This document shows positions 11,399-32,300 of a stretch of DNA of 64,000 bases, piece by piece (positions within the stretch are counted from its first letter, which is position 1; every line of letters begins with the position of its first letter). A program made the position numbers. Origin of the DNA: Turneriella sp. (GTDB lineage Bacteria; Spirochaetota; Leptospiria; Turneriellales; Turneriellaceae); NCBI GenBank assembly GCA_965279515.1, contig CBDIID010000003.1:2656001-2720000 (forward strand), written 5' to 3'.

Positions 11399-14300
11399 AG
11401 GGGTTCGACTCCCTTCGTGCGCAAAACGGTGGTCGTAGCATCGAAGACGCTCGCAACTGGCGAGCCAGCTTCGCTAGCGACCACCAAACACGGTGGTCGT
11501 AGCACCGAAGACGGTGGCGTCAGCGCCTCTGTCTCAGAGACCGAAGACGGTCACAGCTGGTAGAGACCAGTTTGTTCTACGATAAAACACGGTGGTCGTA
11601 GCTCAGCTGGTAGAGCGTCAGATTGTGATTCTGAATGTCGCGGGTTCAACCCCCGTCGATCACCCATAGGTTCCTTAAAAACGCATGATGAATAGTTCAT
11701 GCGAACGAGTGCCGCCGAAAGCAGGCGTCCTCGCCGCTTTAGCAGCACATTGCTGAAAGCAATGTGCGAGGCTTTTGGCGGCAACGTTTTTGGGAACCTC
11801 GCAGCATTCGCTCTTGCCAAAAGCAAAAGCGTTTACGCGACAGCGAGCGTGGTGAAACTGGTAGACACGCGGGATTTAGGTTCCCGTGCCGCAAGGTGTG
11901 GGGGTTCAAGTCCCTCCGCTCGCACAGTGAGCCCGACTCACTTTAAAGAAACGACCCACGCGGGAATAGCTCAGTGGTAGAGCATCTCCTTGCCAAGGAG
12001 AGGGTCGTGGGTTCAAGTCCCATTTCCCGCTCATGTTTTTCAAGGGGGTACTGCGTACCCCCTTAAACCCCCGCCATGCATAGAATTTTAGGTATCTGCT
12101 TGCTGGTCTGCTTCTGCGCAAAATCGGAAAAGCGCAGCGATCTCATCACTATACCGCTCAAATACCGCGCAGAAATTTTAGATCCGCTCTTTGCCGTCGA
12201 CGAATCGACCGTGTTGGTTGTGAATTTTCTCCACCGCCGGCTCTATAGTTATTCACCCGATGGAAAACTCGAAGCCGACCTCGCCCTGGGTGAAATGCAA
12301 ACGGGACGGCGCGTGATCATTCAACTCAAAGGCGGCGGGCCGACTGCCGATGACGTCGTCTATGCGCTACACCGAGTGCAGAAAGATGCCAACCAGGCAT
12401 GGGTGATGGAGCAGATCAAAACGGTGCGCCGGCTCGACGCGTATTCAATCGAAATCACTTTGTCTGAATCACCGCGGCCCGCTGCGACTGACTGGCAGCT
12501 GGCGAAAATTAAACTCACGCTGCCGCAGTGCGCCATCTTCCACGCCAAAGAGCATGCGGCCGACAAAAGTTTCATCCCTTTTTCACGCTATCGCATCGCC
12601 GAACAAACCGGTGATCGTATCCTTTTTTCGACGACCGACCACTCGCCGCAGCTCGAATTTCTCGCCATGCCCGATGAGACGGCCCGCTATTTTGCCTTCC
12701 GCGAGGCGAGGCTCGACGCCTATGAGGCGCTGGGCATCCACCGCAAAATGCCCTACGATGCCGCTATCTATGAACCGCAGACCATGTACGACCTCGTCGT
12801 GCTCTACGGGGCTTTTAACGTGGCTGAACCCTCGGCACTGGCACAGCCAGGCCTGAGGCGGGCCTTAAACCTGGCCTTTAACCGCAATTTGCTGTGCGAA
12901 AAAACACTGCTGGGTGCCTGCGCCGGTGCGGATTACCCCGTGCCTGCGGTGCTATCTCCCGCGCCGCGGCCTGCCTTCCCCGAGACCGGTTCTTACCGCA
13001 TTCCCGCAACGCCTGAGACAGTGACGCTTTTTACGCTCAGTGACAAGGAACGCGTTCTTATTGCGGAATACATGCGCGACGTTTTTGCGAGGTTCAACAT
13101 CCGCCTCGAATTTCGTATCGTCGATCTGCCGAGTATGGTGCGCGAAAGCAACAAGGGCACACGCGGTATCTACCTCATGAAATGGTCGGGGGATTACCCC
13201 CATGCAGAAAACTTTCTCGTGCCGCTTTTCCATTCGCGCAACGCGGGCATCGGTGGCAACCGGGCGCACATCAAGGACAAAATGCTCGATACGATGCTCG
13301 ACCGCTCGAGTTATTCGGTGGAAGATGTCGAAAAAATTCAGCAGCGCTTGCGGTATCTCTCGCCCTGGCTCTTCATCGGCTTCCAGAATATGCAGTACTA
13401 CCGGTTGAAAAAGTCGCGGCTAAGAATCCCGCAGATTTTTGCAGGCTGGGGCGAGCGCACGGTCTCAAATTAATAACAGTCTTGCCTGCTCCACGCCTAA
13501 GACGGATGGCGTCCCGGCCTGCGGCCGTCGGGCTGCTCCGGGCTCCGCTGGCGCTGCGGTCGCTAACGCGACCAAGCCCTGCGCATCCCTAACGCATACA
13601 TTCAGATTATCCCTCTCGCCTTACCACCTGGCGCCCACCAACACGGCCAAGGCATTCCGCTCGATGTCCGCATCGGAAACCCGCCGGCGCTTCCCCGACA
13701 CCAGCCGCGAACGAAAGATGCCCGTCACATCGTCTTGAAAGTAGCGCAGCTCGGCAGAAAAGCGTTCTTCTGCTGGTGCCAGCCCGTAGCGCCGCCACTT
13801 GCGGCTCGCATCGATGCAGTAAAGGTGCCACTTGCCGTCTTCGTACGAAAACTTCGCCGCGTCGCGGCCGGTCAAATCGCCGTTCTCCGCCACGAACTCT
13901 TCCGCGATGACAAACGTGTTACCGCGCCTGAACCAGTAGATGCGGTCCTCTGCCTTGCCACGTCTTTTCTTTTGCGCATGTTGCACGTACGCGTCGAGTT
14001 GTGCGGAGACAATCGCCAAGAGATCCGCTGAAATAGTTGGTCGAAAAAAAGTTAGCATCAGCGATCTTCCGTTTTTCGCTACTTCGGCAAAGGAATCGCC
14101 CCGAACTGTTTTTCGTAGCCGGCCATTTGCTCCGTCAAAATCCTGGCAAGCATCACCGCCGTCTGCGGGCTGAGGCGCAGGTTCAATGCGCCCTTGAGTT
14201 CATTCTTCGAGCTGACCAGCATGGCGCTGAGTTCGACTTCGAAGGCATTGACGTTCACCTGGATCGTGTTCGCGTAGAATTCGGGAATTTGCTGCGCGGG

Positions 14301-29300: not shown

Positions 29301-32300
29301 TCTGCTGTGAATTCGGAAGAGCGATGACGTCGAAATTTTTCTTGGTCTGGCGGTAGATATCCTGCTGCTGATCAAAAGCGGCTTTGGCGCTTGCCACCAC
29401 AAGCGCCTGTGCTTCGATAAGGCTCTTATCCGCCTGTAACTGAGCGCCGAGCTCCGTAAGATTCATCTGTAACGGATTTGCCGGAACCATCGCGTTCTTA
29501 ACGTCTGCGATTTTCTGAGAAAGCTCAGAGAAGCGGTAGTTTCCCTGTAGATCAGTCAGCGACTGAAACAGCGCGCCTGCGGCGGATTTCAGCTGCGCCC
29601 AGCGCTGCTGTTTTTCCAGAAGGGCATCGCCCGTTAGGCCCACGGTCCATTCATTCTTGAGCTGTATCAGCTTGTCAGAGAATTGCTGCAGGTAATGCAC
29701 ATTCTGGGCATTTCCTGCTGGTGTTGCGGGATTTGTGCCACGCCACTGATCGAAGGCCCCTATCAGGGCGTTTAAATCCGTGCCGACTGTTATAGCACCG
29801 GCGCCCACAACGGTATTCAGCGCCGTCTTCTCTGTCAAAATCTGTCCTTCGCGCGTGTAAATGGTGTTCAGGTCAATGCCACGTGCGGCGAGTATATTTG
29901 TAAACTCCGTATCGCGCGTCGTTGCATTGCTCTTAACGAGAGGGTTCAGCGCGATATCGCCTTTCAGGATTTTATATTTGATTTCTGCGAGATCAGTATA
30001 AACTTTTTGAATATCGGCCGCTTCTTTCGTGATTTGCCCGAGCTCAAGACCCGCACCGGAAGCATTGGCTACGCGCGCATAGTTATAAACGGCTTCCGAT
30101 GTCGCCAGTTGCTGGGCGAGAAAATTACGGCGATTACGCAGAAGCTCCCATTCATATTCTGCCTGTGTCATCAAATAGGGATCGTTATCGTTGCTCGTCA
30201 GGTAATTACCGCCATAAGGCGTATTGAAATAAGCCGTAACGCGGTTAAAGAGCGACTGATCGACATTCAATCCGCTGGTCAGCAGAGACTGCACTTGTGT
30301 TTGCAGTGCGGTTTTCTTCGCGGCTTCGTCGGGGAAATTGGTATTATCCGCATTGATGGTATTCCAGATTTGCTGGATATCCGTCTTAACATTGGCGTGT
30401 TCGTCGCTGTAACTATTGAGCTTTGCCGTTACATCCGCGAAATTATAACCACCGGAAAACCAGGCGCCCAGATCAGCGCCGAGATACTGGCTCGAAACAG
30501 CGTAAAGATCGGCGCGCTGGATTTCACCGCGCAGATCGCGGTCATAGAGCACGTAGGCTTCGGCGAAGGTATCAAGTTTTGTCTGTAGCGCCGATTTAAA
30601 TCCAGAAGGGCCTAAAGCGGCAATCTCTGCCGGAACAGTACCGGCAAATACGCGCTTGTCCACCAGATAACCACTGTCAGGGTTTTGGGATAGCATCGTG
30701 CTTTGCATTTCTGTACGCACCCGGGCCAGCAGGTTATTGAAAGTACCAAGGGCAGTGTTAAAGTAATTAATCTGCTGCTGGTAAAATGTCTTGATTGTTG
30801 TATCTGTCGTATCGGGCATGACTGAGCTGTAGAAAGCTACAGCGTCCTGCGCCTGTGAAAGCGCAGAGCCACCCGTTGTCACCATATCAATCAGCTTGTC
30901 ATTATAGCCATTCCAGCGATCGTTTTCAGAGACAAGCAGGCGTTGAAATTCCGAATCCGCTCTTTGGCGCTCGTCGGCAAACTGTACGTATTTCTGGTCC
31001 CAAAGAGCACGCCCCTGTTGAATCTGCGTCTTGACCTGAGTCATCCATTTTTCTTTTTCTAAGCGGATACGCTCATACTGCGCTTTCCAGATTTCGCCGC
31101 CATCCTTGAGTAATTTCTTTTCTTTGTTGGCCCACTCGATGCGCTTCTCCATCAGGTCTTCTTCAGCGACCTCCCAGGACTTAAGCCCTTGGCTGACAAT
31201 GGCCTCTACCTGGCGCTGCCAATCCTGACCGAGATTATTGATGTCGGCACTTTGCTGCCCCAGAGCGGCATTGACCGCCTGCTGTAACGCCTGCGTCGTC
31301 ATTCCATCGACGCTCTGCCAAGTCTGCTTCAAAAGCTGGTCGGTAAGGTATGCGGCAGACTCTTTCTCTGACTCCGATTTAGCACTGCCCAAGTCTGAGC
31401 GCTTCTCTGCGATATACTGATTGCGTGCGCGGCGGAGATAATAGTTCTGCTTAAGTTCATACTCCGACTTAATCGATGCTTCCACCTTGGCGAGTTCTGC
31501 ATCGAAGGCAGTGCGCTCGGTTCCTGATAGTGCGAGATTTGTTGAGGCAATACGGTTGATCTCTGCGGTTAAAAGAGACTGAAACTGCGTTTCTACCGCT
31601 GCATTGTCGCCCTGAACCGTTGCATCCCAAAGTGCAAGGTTAAGATCGGTGCCCAGAACCGCCGTACGCGCTTTGGTAATAATCTGCCGGTACTTTTCTT
31701 CGTCGACTTCGGCAACGAAAGCGTTGCCAACAATAGCCTTCCACTTACCCCGCTCCGAAATAACCCTGTCAGCCGCCGTGGAAAGCCAGTCGAGTTTTGC
31801 CTGATCGAAAACTGCCTGCGCTGCATTCTTCTGCGCCAGCTTCTGCGCGTCGTCCAGACCGACAGTTTCATCGATGACTTTCTTTTCTGCGTCCAGAGAG
31901 GCCCGCGCTTCGGATTCCCATTGTGCCTCTGAGACACCTAAACCCTGATCGACAAAATTCTGCCACGTAGCTTCCGTCGACAGCGTTTTGCCGCGGTCGA
32001 AGTAATTTTCCATTTGTGTTTTGCCGCGCTCGTCGAAGGTCTTATATTGCGGCGCGGCGGCGAGAGCCGTCGTAAAAGGCATGATGCCGAAAAGATAAAC
32101 AAATACAAAGGTTAGCAGGAAAGACGTAAAACGGAAAAAACTCTCTCCATTCTGGCTACTACGGGAAAACATAAAAGCCTCCTGCTCTTAATATAGACCG
32201 GGCATGACAGCAGAGCCTAAACTCGCCGTCAGCAAAAAAACGGTTTTCAGAGACATTAGCCCAGAGCCGACTCTTGTCTATTTTAGTATTGACTATTTAA

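Follow-up and report, generated by a model that had tools for sequence, protein, structure and literature searches.

Giant polymorphic toxin candidates of Turneriella and a candidate RND-TolC-lipoprotein cluster for their export

Results

The window, that is, the whole 64,000-nucleotide stretch of Turneriella DNA analysed here, carries on its minus strand a giant gene (A, 17650..32172) that encodes 4,840 residues in one ORF. Its paralog B (4,790 residues, single open frame) is located outside the window, on the minus strand at C3:2449659-2464031, and is adjoined by a candidate export cluster (C3:2464211-2481842, also outside the window) that lies about 200 kb away from A. That the two are giant paralogs agrees with the first-pass annotation: BLASTP aligns them at 70.8% identity over residues 1-4337 of A and 1-4293 of B. 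The start at 12076 given to the locus was misplaced, as 12076-13473 on the opposite (plus) strand is an SBP_bac_5 solute-binding protein gene outside the locus. Public contigs from four runs of one study, probably the source sample, show zero differences from the stretch, and one 6,245-base public contig spans the tip of A and both next genes.

Both proteins have a hydrophobic, signal-like stretch at residues 11-41, as first described, which is immediately followed by the family consensus L-x-A-Q/x-P; residues 1-41 of A (32050..32172, minus strand like all features of this locus given below) resemble a Sec-type signal. The conserved N-terminal region (residues 39-540, 30553..32058) is predicted to be all-helical by a model (pLDDT 84.8, pTM 0.52) that forms a long helical rod. 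Foldseek returned zero matches for this region at E<=0.001, and the best solved match, a designed helical bundle (Z 13.6, rmsd 2.4, 130 residues), falls within the range of generic bundles; the first 500 residues of A have no clear solved-structure match. Next comes a long stalk (residues ~541-3289, 22306..30552), Ala-rich, Pro-poor and without Cys, which gave no family match and which we infer to be helical. The first hydrophobic block (residues ~3290-3420, 21913..22305) is 38-39% identical between A and B, and many relatives are hydrophobic at a similar position. A second conserved region (residues 3560-3960, 20293..21495) includes an internal, distant repeat of residues ~305-387, and a Gly-rich block (19%) with a hydrophobic segment (residues 4001-4400, 18973..20172), a candidate membrane-entry region, starts the exchangeable unit. 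HINT domains are absent from A, B and the rest of this genome.

Complete divergence had been claimed for the last ~500 residues. The tips are indeed unrelated, but identity is already falling from ~3900: counted per 100 residues, it is 70-83% at 3500-3900 and then 62, 40, 34 and 28% over 3900-4300. Over residues ~3900-4350, A is closer to a protein encoded in genome G188 (62%) than to B (36%), so the exchanged unit comprises ~850-900 residues. The carrier had also been said to match no Pfam or NCBIfam model. This holds in that whole A matches zero NCBIfam families at E<=1, its only Pfam match is DUF7587 in the tip, and none of the RHS, haemagglutinin, PAAR, LXG and MafB models of the two databases match it; however, TIGR04388 gives sub-threshold scores, and PHROG 22272, whose function is not known, matches residues 11-489 with an E of 2e-24.

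DUF7587 in the tip of A (17650..18057) scores 28.3 bits in Pfam (cut-off 27), and the GC3 of the tip is 0.29, compared with 0.59 for the whole gene. The R-S-E motifs (Arg, Ser-x-Ser/Thr, Glu) are present as R4715, S4764 and E4821; among 32 sequences the Ser is invariant and the Glu nearly so. Atlas neighbours of the tip are Scabin-like/NarE, and its single-sequence model is of low confidence (pLDDT 36.6). The tip A profile matched PDB entry 9ZDM (E 1.3e-6), which is RhsF-CT/RhsFi (bioRxiv 10.64898/2025.12.06.692724). RhsF-CT/TreThr of Chromobacterium violaceum is an antibacterial tRNA-modifying ADP-ribosyltransferase (ART; PMC13617354) blocked by a downstream gene. No other solved structure was linked to tip A by profile; the protein has the ART fold, in which an Arg and a Glu are catalytic, but it is distant from tip A and rides a T6SS/RHS carrier. 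Tip A looks like an R-S-E ADP-ribosyltransferase-like domain related to RhsF-CT.

Directly behind the tip, a 114-aa candidate immunity gene (17309..17653) overlaps the toxin stop by 4 bases, and a 146-aa gene (16845..17285) forms the second gene of a mobile tip cassette. Tip A homologues at 51-60% identity occur in eight loci of other phyla, two of them fused to Fil_haemagg_2 carriers and two in RHS loci; a homologue of the 114-aa gene stands directly behind the tip in all eight, and one of the 146-aa gene at the same position in seven. The 114-aa protein has no signal peptide by eye, and its family did not match the immunity chain of 9ZDM. Tip B had zero Pfam or PDB sequence matches. Its Atlas neighbours are C39/C47/C70 peptidases (0.93-0.95), residues C4602, H4702 and D4722, picked by eye, make up a candidate triad, and the domain is a candidate papain-like (clan CA-type) enzyme.

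As reported earlier, the small genes behind both tips are of low GC (0.42 and 0.42 after A, 0.42 after B), and each locus has two DUF3024 genes. At A these belong to a tail array (13621..16645) of three DUF3467-like copies (16454-16645, truncated; 15563-15829; 14079-14348) and two DUF3024 genes (15184-15549, 13621-14058), interleaved with a gene for a 189-aa lipoprotein-like protein (15842-16411) and an ankyrin protein gene (14356-15072). The DUF3024 genes had been read as immunity or orphan modules. Neither role is supported, since they have host-like GC (0.54-0.58) and are 81-89% identical between the A and B loci despite the unrelated tips. Orphan toxin tips, also proposed, were found nowhere in this genome, including the A and B loci. 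Stalk-like orphan ORFs are present behind the relatives L068, L072 and L078.

The carrier family comprises 216 clusters at 50% identity and is found in 53 of 190 Leptospiria genomes, in place of the three proteins first counted; by homology it spans Spirochaetota and is not confined to Leptospiria, as had been supposed. The tips of 40 relatives fall into 33 groups, and in four of the five shared-tip groups the next gene is also common. A same-strand ORF follows within 150 bases in 35 of the 40, with lower GC in 28 of these 35. PT-HINT occurs in six of the 40 long relatives, including the closest one (L068); other tip domains are Ntox8, Ntox30, M23, C39_2, lipase and LysM, and most tips have no Pfam match.

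The family is not without known relatives, contrary to the earlier reading, as it shares an N-terminal domain and a gene neighbourhood with TIGR04388 (Lepto_longest) proteins. The TIGR04388 model scores 23.2 and 16.3 bits on the N-termini of A and B (cut-off 45); among 41 long N-termini it gives 16 sub-threshold matches and none over the cut-off, the best long relative reaching 32.3 bits. A profile of the giant family matches 16 of 17 TIGR04388 proteins at their N-terminus (E 4e-14 to 5e-5); it matches zero reversed sequences and, of the 7,008 ORFs of this genome, A and B alone. By this profile comparison, the first ~200 residues of A and B are distantly related, at superfamily level, to the TIGR04388 N-terminal domain. 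The second conserved region was not detected in the 17 TIGR04388 proteins; beyond the first ~200 residues the stalk stays unclassified, and its bulk has no named family. Both groups have a signal-like start, variable C-termini and PT-HINT in some members, and TIGR04388 loci have the same neighbouring cluster as the long giants. They differ in length (3,600-5,100 aa for long giants, ~1,800-3,300 aa for TIGR04388 proteins), in the missing HINT of A and B, and in that long giants have their own cluster subtype. On balance, we favour the carrier of A and B being a long, divergent branch of a superfamily that includes the shorter Leptospira TIGR04388 members. The family description of TIGR04388 speaks of a putative large structural protein and of a HINT/intein-like domain ahead of a variable end. 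LA_3725/LIC10502 of L. interrogans is probably a TIGR04388 member, a membership that we infer; LA_3725 was noted to carry a pretoxin HINT of the kind typically seen in polymorphic toxins (PMC4751964), and LIC10496 is TolC-like (PMC5406399). A lipoprotein beside B scores over the lipo_LIC10494 cut-off.

The seven-gene cluster beside B, which the first-pass annotation had overlooked, encodes two RND permeases, an adaptor, TolC, two Ig-like (Big_5) lipoproteins and a TPR lipoprotein. Its GC of 0.43-0.47 in a genome of 0.53 marks an island, which ends at a tRNA-Arg. Of 62 loci, TIGR04388 loci included, 22 carry two or more core cluster genes in the upstream 12 kb. Among the 190 Leptospiria genomes, 46 have both a marker lipoprotein and a long giant, two the giant alone, four the marker alone and 138 neither; outside Leptospiria the counts are 38, 13, 10 and 193, with cut-offs (giant E<1e-10, marker E<=1e-30) that were set after the data had been seen and with related genomes that are not independent. 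Presence of marker and giant matches exactly in three patchy genera (10/22, 8/41 and 5/22). Outside Leptospiria, 20 of the 38 pairs are at most 20 kb apart, and the other 18 show no such proximity on a single contig; in 9 of 17 genomes the entire cluster lies within 20 kb upstream of the giant, and in five of the 17 it shares the strand of the giant, its last RND gene ending within ~0.3 kb of the giant start. The seven-gene set stays with giants across several spirochaete families, while gene order and orientation vary. TolC subtype tracks giant subtype and not host genus: within the long type, TolC proteins from different genera are 48-50% identical, whereas those of different giant types inside one genus are 20-21% and those of distant groups 14-28% identical.

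Seven other RND permeases of this genome group apart from those of the cluster. Against named RND families (AcrB, MdtB/C, CusA) the cluster permeases reach at best 557 bits (cut-off 1250); the closest NCBIfam models are those of efflux permeases, and none of the scores reaches its cut-off. Only one of the two TM4 aspartates of AcrB is kept, and many second subunits lack the motif. G020, a complete genome, encodes three long giants but lacks the marker lipoprotein, although two shorter relatives there have an RND pair and an adaptor next to them, and G188 and G179 of the same genus (84-86% complete) have giants without a cluster match. Other shared export genes were found in none of the 62 upstream regions or further spirochaete regions examined, and CdiB-, T6SS- or T7SS-type genes are not among the conserved neighbours.

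Discussion

Here, we have described two giant proteins with an exchangeable C-terminal unit, enzyme-like tips, a tip-specific next gene and a conserved partner cluster, as seen by sequence comparison. The 33 tip groups in 40 relatives, the tip-specific next gene and the occurrence of tip A on other carriers uphold the original view of polymorphic toxins, and we consider it very likely that both giants act as polymorphic antibacterial toxins with immunity genes. The polymorphic toxin systems CdiA/CdiB, RHS, MafB and LXG (PMC3482391) likewise have a constant carrier, a variable tip, an adjacent immunity gene and exchange of tips between carriers, and tip A is found on haemagglutinin carriers elsewhere. 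The carrier of A and B differs in its predicted all-helical nature and in lacking their trafficking or repeat domains, and the two loci have no orphan tips. According to two preprints (bioRxiv 10.1101/2021.10.19.465003, 10.64898/2026.07.31.742022), PT8/PIM8 of L. interrogans pairs a validated tip of the polymorphic toxin kind, specific to Leptospiraceae and active as a nuclease, with its cognate immunity protein, and in this respect resembles the pairs proposed here.

How could proteins of this size leave the cell? A functional partnership between giants and cluster is likely, and export of the giants through it is slightly more likely than not. With two permeases, an adaptor and a TolC-like channel, the cluster resembles MdtABC-TolC; it differs from tripartite RND pumps in scoring far below the named RND family cut-offs and in its fixed extra lipoproteins. 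It is not a type I secretion system (ABC-HlyD-TolC), since its motors are of the AcrB family and not ABC, and the giants have a signal-like N-terminus whereas type I cargo has no Sec signal. Small proteins are exported in two steps through TolC by Aat (dispersin) and MacAB-TolC (heat-stable enterotoxin II), where the motors are ABC and not RND proteins; the proposed periplasmic pick-up of Sec-exported cargo is similar, but the cargo here would be 300-500 kDa. RND pumps are known to move small molecules, and we found no paper in which one exports a large protein. The RND-TolC-lipoprotein cluster may be a new candidate export route for very large proteins.

We argue that the signal peptide would direct the giant through Sec into the periplasm, where a two-subunit RND-adaptor-TolC machine, assisted by the lipoproteins, would thread it across the outer membrane. 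The common N-terminal ~200 residues would be the likely docking signal, and a single machine per genome could serve several toxin loci. The stalk would extend to an adjacent cell, which the tip would enter by means of the Gly-rich hydrophobic blocks. The tip may be cleaved off by the HINT domain in relatives and by another route in A and B. Tip A could then modify cytoplasmic RNA or protein in an NAD-dependent manner, blocked by the 114-aa protein, and tip B could attack the envelope, blocked by an exported SH3 protein. We assign this whole explanation (toxins on a giant helical carrier, Sec, then a dedicated RND-TolC machine) a probability of roughly 0.55. Against it stand the small-molecule precedent of RND pumps and the degenerate TM4 motif, the giants without marker or cluster match in G020, G188 and G179, the lack of HINT in A and B and of Pfam matches for most tips, and the fact that co-transfer as a single island would likewise produce co-occurrence.

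The last point leads to the view that the cluster performs ordinary efflux of small molecules and shares a mobile island with the giants, which would leave the periplasm by an unrelated route such as vesicles, lysis or self-translocation. The low-GC island ending at tRNA-Arg, the efflux permeases as best, sub-threshold NCBIfam matches, the three exceptional genomes and the 10 marker-only genomes outside Leptospiria would fit. We nevertheless regard it as distinctly improbable, as the set is kept across several spirochaete families despite rearrangement and TolC identities of 14-28%, co-occurrence persists in the 18 of 38 pairs not linked within 20 kb on one contig, and the other seven RND permeases group apart. 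The giants could also be toxins exported by another path, and the cluster could serve kin-specific uptake or recognition in the target cell, or in both cells. AcrB for one CdiA toxin, TolC for colicin E1 and TraAB for Myxococcus SitA toxins are precedents in target cells; the subtype-specific pairing would suit kin targeting, the two Ig-like lipoproteins would suit recognition, and proton-relay motifs are degenerate in many second subunits. A pure receptor, however, would give its owner no gain and should often be apart from the toxin or lost, whereas the cluster is operon-like with the giant in five distant genomes and the examined regions offer no alternative shared export genes, so that we find uptake unlikely.

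Two further alternatives concern the giant itself. It is quite unlikely to be a surface or envelope-spanning appendage, held in an RND-adaptor-TolC base, whose hydrolase tips serve adhesion, predation or feeding and not kin competition. In favour are several tips that would hydrolyse or bind envelope components (M23, C39_2, lipase, LysM), the long helical rod of the predicted model and the description of TIGR04388 as structural, but cytoplasm-acting tips (ART, Ntox8, Ntox30) require delivery into cells, possibly kin, and tip-specific neighbour genes are common to CDI/RHS systems. That the giant descends from a phage structural protein, of the tape-measure or ejection type, and has captured its tips is very improbable: the PHROG 22272 match, which may just reflect members of the giant family in that group, and weak tape-measure rows in a viral fold search (best E 0.015, TM 0.17; no match at E<=0.001) are set against a signal peptide on the giants and conserved neighbours without phage genes.

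We know of few recognised routes by which spirochaetes export large proteins or fight other bacteria. Spirochaetes could, tentatively and at slightly less than even odds, have a secretion system of their own, in which a proton-driven, two-subunit RND-adaptor-TolC machine with two Ig-like lipoproteins and a TPR lipoprotein collects Sec-delivered helical toxins of 200-550 kDa from the periplasm and displays them for killing neighbours, with TIGR04388, long and Treponema-type giants as cargo. The largest unannotated spirochaete genes are thereby given a likely role, and a seven-gene candidate machine is named. The tips would enlarge the stock of antibacterial domains, most of them unnamed, and, if export is true, the range of RND pumps would extend from the drug and metal efflux for which they are known to the movement of giant proteins.

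Two giant paralogs and the extent of the exchanged unit

The giant toxin candidate A is encoded by an open reading frame of 4,840 aa on the reverse strand (window 17650-32172), and a six-frame search found one sole other match in the genome, the 4,790-aa paralog B, which lies ~210 kb away. That the two share ~4,300 residues, as the first-pass annotation had proposed, is borne out by an alignment of B with A at 70.8% identity over residues 1-4293/1-4337. Along the length, the first 1,000 residues are 84-96% identical; identity is 38-39% at 3200-3400 and 70-83% at 3500-3900, and then reads 62, 40, 34 and 28% across successive stretches of 3900-4300. 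Over ~3900-4350, A shares 62% identity with a protein of the same-genus genome G188 and 36% with B. As identity to B falls from 3900 and A is here nearer to G188, the exchanged unit comprises ~850-900 residues, not the last ~500 to which the divergence had been confined. The locus had also been started at 12076; the gene there (12076-13473) encodes a solute-binding protein on the opposite strand and was rejected as a member.

Public contigs from four runs of one study show no differences from the stretch, junctions with just 20-26 letters on one side being left out, and one spans tip A (the variable C-terminal domain) and both next genes. Since these contigs may come from the source sample, they argue only against misassembly. 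Just upstream of their start codons A and B have a 24-base element in common (window 32181-32204; C3:2464040-2464063), their upstream regions being otherwise unlike. Other very long open reading frames, unrelated to the giant family, lie at C3:2108368-2127223 and C3:915898-927159: three in tandem of ~2,050-2,150 aa and one of 3,753 aa.

The carrier and its relatives

The giants had been described as a family without known relatives. When the genome was searched with TIGR04388 (Lepto_longest), the NCBIfam family of shorter Leptospira giants, A and B were the top two of three matches (model positions 26-180; 16.3 and 23.2 bits), and a sub-threshold match is present in 16 of 41 long N-termini. 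The N-terminal profile of the long family in turn matched the N-termini of 16/17 TIGR04388 proteins, none of the reversed controls and, among 7,008 genome ORFs, only A and B; a profile of a second conserved region matched 0/17. A, which scores below the cut-off of 45, is thus outside TIGR04388 but has its first domain in common with that family, and the earlier description was too strong.

Nor is this a family of three proteins restricted to Leptospiria, as had been thought. An unindexed search gave 216 clusters of relatives; among 20 looked up, 4 have spirochaete names (Treponema sp., Spirochaetaceae, Spirochaetota) and the others are without taxon. With a 75-row alignment, 76/301 sampled Spirochaetota genomes were matched, and residues 1-1000 were matched in 53/190 Leptospiria genomes. 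Residues 39-540 are predicted to form all long helices (pLDDT 84.8, pTM 0.52), and fold searches with this model returned just generic helical bundles and no clear structural match. The stalk, the long carrier before the tip, contains a distant internal duplication (A residues ~305-387 and ~3690-3770), also present in many relatives including Treponema-type ones.

Variable tips and their cassettes

Forty giant loci were fetched, and 40 long C-termini (B and 39 relatives) were scanned. PT-HINT was found in six, the closest relative among them. Most tips are without a Pfam match, those that have a name including Ntox8, Ntox30, M23, C39_2 and lipase, and HINT is absent from A and B. The 40 tips fall into 33 groups, and the next gene is also shared in four of the five groups with several members. 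One group of tip plus next gene joins the Turneriella genus with a distant Leptospira-family protein. A same-strand ORF, chosen mechanically, lies within 150 bases of the giant in 35/40 relatives, 28 of these ORFs having lower GC and at least two of the 35 being stalk fragments. These comparisons indicate that the family is polymorphic. The orphan toxin modules that had been suggested find no counterpart, as no orphan tips were found in the genome. Genes directly downstream of two distant spirochaete giants carry a NADase_transloc (F5/8 type C) domain (L208:9800-10762, L209:108-1121).

In tip A, the last 135 residues pass the DUF7587 cut-off, R4715, S4764 and E4821 are kept, and the Atlas neighbours are Scabin-like proteins and NarE. 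A 32-sequence profile of the tip matched one solved sequence, PDB 9ZDM (E 1.3e-6), which is RhsF-CT with its immunity protein (bioRxiv 10.64898/2025.12.06.692724); the available text of PMC13617354 describes RhsF-CT as an antibacterial ART that modifies tRNA-Thr. The single-sequence fold of tip A reached pLDDT 36.6, and its predicted complex with the protein of the next, 114-aa gene (score 0.01, mark 0.32) was uninformative either way. Homologues of the tip, 51-60% identical, occur in eight loci of Burkholderiales-type and Acidobacteriota records, two of them fused to haemagglutinin-repeat carriers and two within RHS loci. Downstream of the tip lie homologues of the 114-aa gene in 8/8 and of the following 146-aa gene in 7/8 of these loci. 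Because tip A and both next genes recur together in foreign loci, they constitute a mobile cassette; GC3 is 0.29 in tip A versus 0.59 in the whole gene. A search for a solved sequence relative found none for the 114-aa family, nor for tip B. In the latter, an arrangement of Cys, His and Asp was picked out by eye, the Atlas neighbours are C39/C47/C70 peptidases, and a gene for an SH3_3 protein lies downstream; SH3 genes also follow three other spirochaete giants, two with M23 tips. Both tips are thus toxin-like.

The DUF3024 genes of the two loci, previously read as immunity or orphan modules, share 81-89% identity and have host-like GC, so they are not tip-specific and were rejected as cognate immunity. 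The small-gene array downstream of A (window 13621-16654) is like a cassette array, with three DUF3467-like copies (~275 bases, 66-82% alike) and two DUF3024 genes alternating with lower-GC variable genes. DUF3467-like copies also lie downstream of giants in six other loci (L063, L064, L065, L069, L088, L104), and DUF3024 downstream of L068. In the two tails, three variable genes for exported proteins are preceded by exact copies of an 18-23 base element (window 16411-16455; C3:2448277-2448299, 2446631-2446648) that was not found elsewhere in the genome; promoter and recombination site are candidate roles. DUF3024 is followed by a hairpin-like repeat of 23-24 bases (window 15098-15121), which has six other sites in the genome, on C3, and is probably REP-like or a terminator. 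tRNA genes lie close to the ends of both tails: a cluster of five beyond A (window 11194-12032) and tRNA-Arg(CCG) beyond B (C3:2444860-2444932). A search for att-like repeats of these tRNAs was negative.

An RND-TolC cluster accompanies the giants

Upstream of B, genes for a TPR lipoprotein, a TolC-like protein, an RND adaptor, two Big_5 lipoproteins, two AcrB-family permeases and one lipo_LIC10494-passing lipoprotein lie in an island with a GC of 0.43-0.47. B and the RND pair are separated by five further genes (207, 256, 290, 215 and 184 aa; L002:4212-7797; C3:2464211-2467796), FGE-sulfatase-like and LIC10494-family lipoprotein genes among them, and several recur beside other giants. Across 62 upstream stretches (~12 kb; some shorter, those of A and B slightly longer), at least one of four core families is present in 28 and at least two in 22, beside long giants and TIGR04388 genes alike. 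In L. interrogans, according to the available text of the respective reports, LA_3725/LIC10502 is a HINT-bearing giant (PMC4751964) and the TolC-like LIC10496 is adjacent to it in numbering (PMC2387172, PMC5406399). Among 17 non-Leptospiria neighbourhoods, RND, adaptor, TolC, two Big_5 and TPR genes all lie ≤20 kb upstream in nine, a partial set in one and none nearby in seven; in five of these 17 genomes cluster and giant share a strand, the end of the cluster lying ≤~0.3 kb from the start of the giant.

The RND permease alone was found in 62/190 genomes at E<=1e-150, with 38/80 places no more than 25 kb from the start of a listed giant or TIGR04388 gene, and separates the subtypes poorly, so one Big_5 lipoprotein served as marker. 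With cut-offs set after the tables were inspected (giant E<1e-10, marker E<=1e-30) and kin not independent, the 190 Leptospiria genomes comprise 46 with both, two with the giant only (G188, G020), four with the marker only and 138 with neither. The two lists are identical inside three genera with a patchy giant (10/22, 8/41 and 5/22, genus sizes inferred from handle ranges). Outside Leptospiria (254 genomes, a total inferred from the tallies), 38 have both, within 20 kb in 20 of them, 13 the giant only, 10 the marker only and 193 neither.

A single clade (support 1.0) holds the second permeases, and the genome's seven other permeases are separate (0.946). TolC tracks the giant subtype and not the host genus; its similarity correlates with that of the giant (rho 0.60, 19 loci), which we discount as co-evolution since shared descent would also produce it. 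Second RND subunits without the TM4 acidic motif occur in clusters beside TIGR04388-type genes (L161, L162, L170-L175, L201), and long-type clusters have one Asp in both.

Discussion

The giants have a common architecture, exchanged tips, tip-specific neighbours, and linkage to and co-occurrence with the cluster. We read them, at a probability of roughly 0.9, as toxins encoded with their immunity proteins. A functional partnership of giants and cluster is likely, and export of the giants through it is slightly favoured. The giant would reach the periplasm via Sec, as the hydrophobic stretch 11-41 suggests, and leave by way of the RND-adaptor-TolC machine, for which the shared N-terminal domain would be the docking signal. 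The stalk would be helical, and Gly-rich hydrophobic blocks near 3290-3420 and 4000-4400 may serve entry, after which tip A would mount an NAD-dependent attack in the cytoplasm and tip B an attack on the envelope. CdiA/AcrB, colicin E1, TraAB/SitA, Aat and MacAB were drawn on for comparison; we know of no precedent for RND export of a large protein.

Several observations count against export. Judged from alignment columns of TM4 only, the proton relay of the linked permeases keeps a single Asp, and the motif is lost in many second subunits. G020 has three long giants and lacks the marker lipoprotein, its RND pair and adaptor lying beside two shorter relatives, and no cluster matches were found in G188 and G179, genomes 84-86% complete. 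Some of the co-occurrence could also result from co-transfer on one island. The cluster might be an uptake or kin-recognition route for the toxins, which is unlikely, though the least so of the alternatives. We give somewhat less weight to the giant as an anchored appendage displaying hydrolases, and slightly less still to the cluster as a hitchhiking efflux pump. A phage protein is very improbable, even with PHROG 22272 (unknown function) matching A residues 11-489, and a phage tape-measure origin was rejected.

In the literature searched, outside which most subscription papers lie, no paper was found that names TIGR04388 or ties giant genes to the RND-TolC cluster. Leptospira goes unmentioned in the available text of PMC3482391 and is named in PMC5714182 in a reference only. 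A Leptospiraceae-specific toxin tip, PT8, is validated according to the accessible text of bioRxiv 10.1101/2021.10.19.465003 and 10.64898/2026.07.31.742022; the study's figure and supplements, which give its carrier, may already list the superfamily of the giants as a toxin carrier.

On the sequence comparisons made here, A is best described as a polymorphic toxin whose helical carrier, for the most part unclassified, belongs to the TIGR04388 superfamily and has relatives throughout the spirochaetes. What might represent a new category is a dedicated RND-TolC export machine, a possibility that we hold at a little under even odds.
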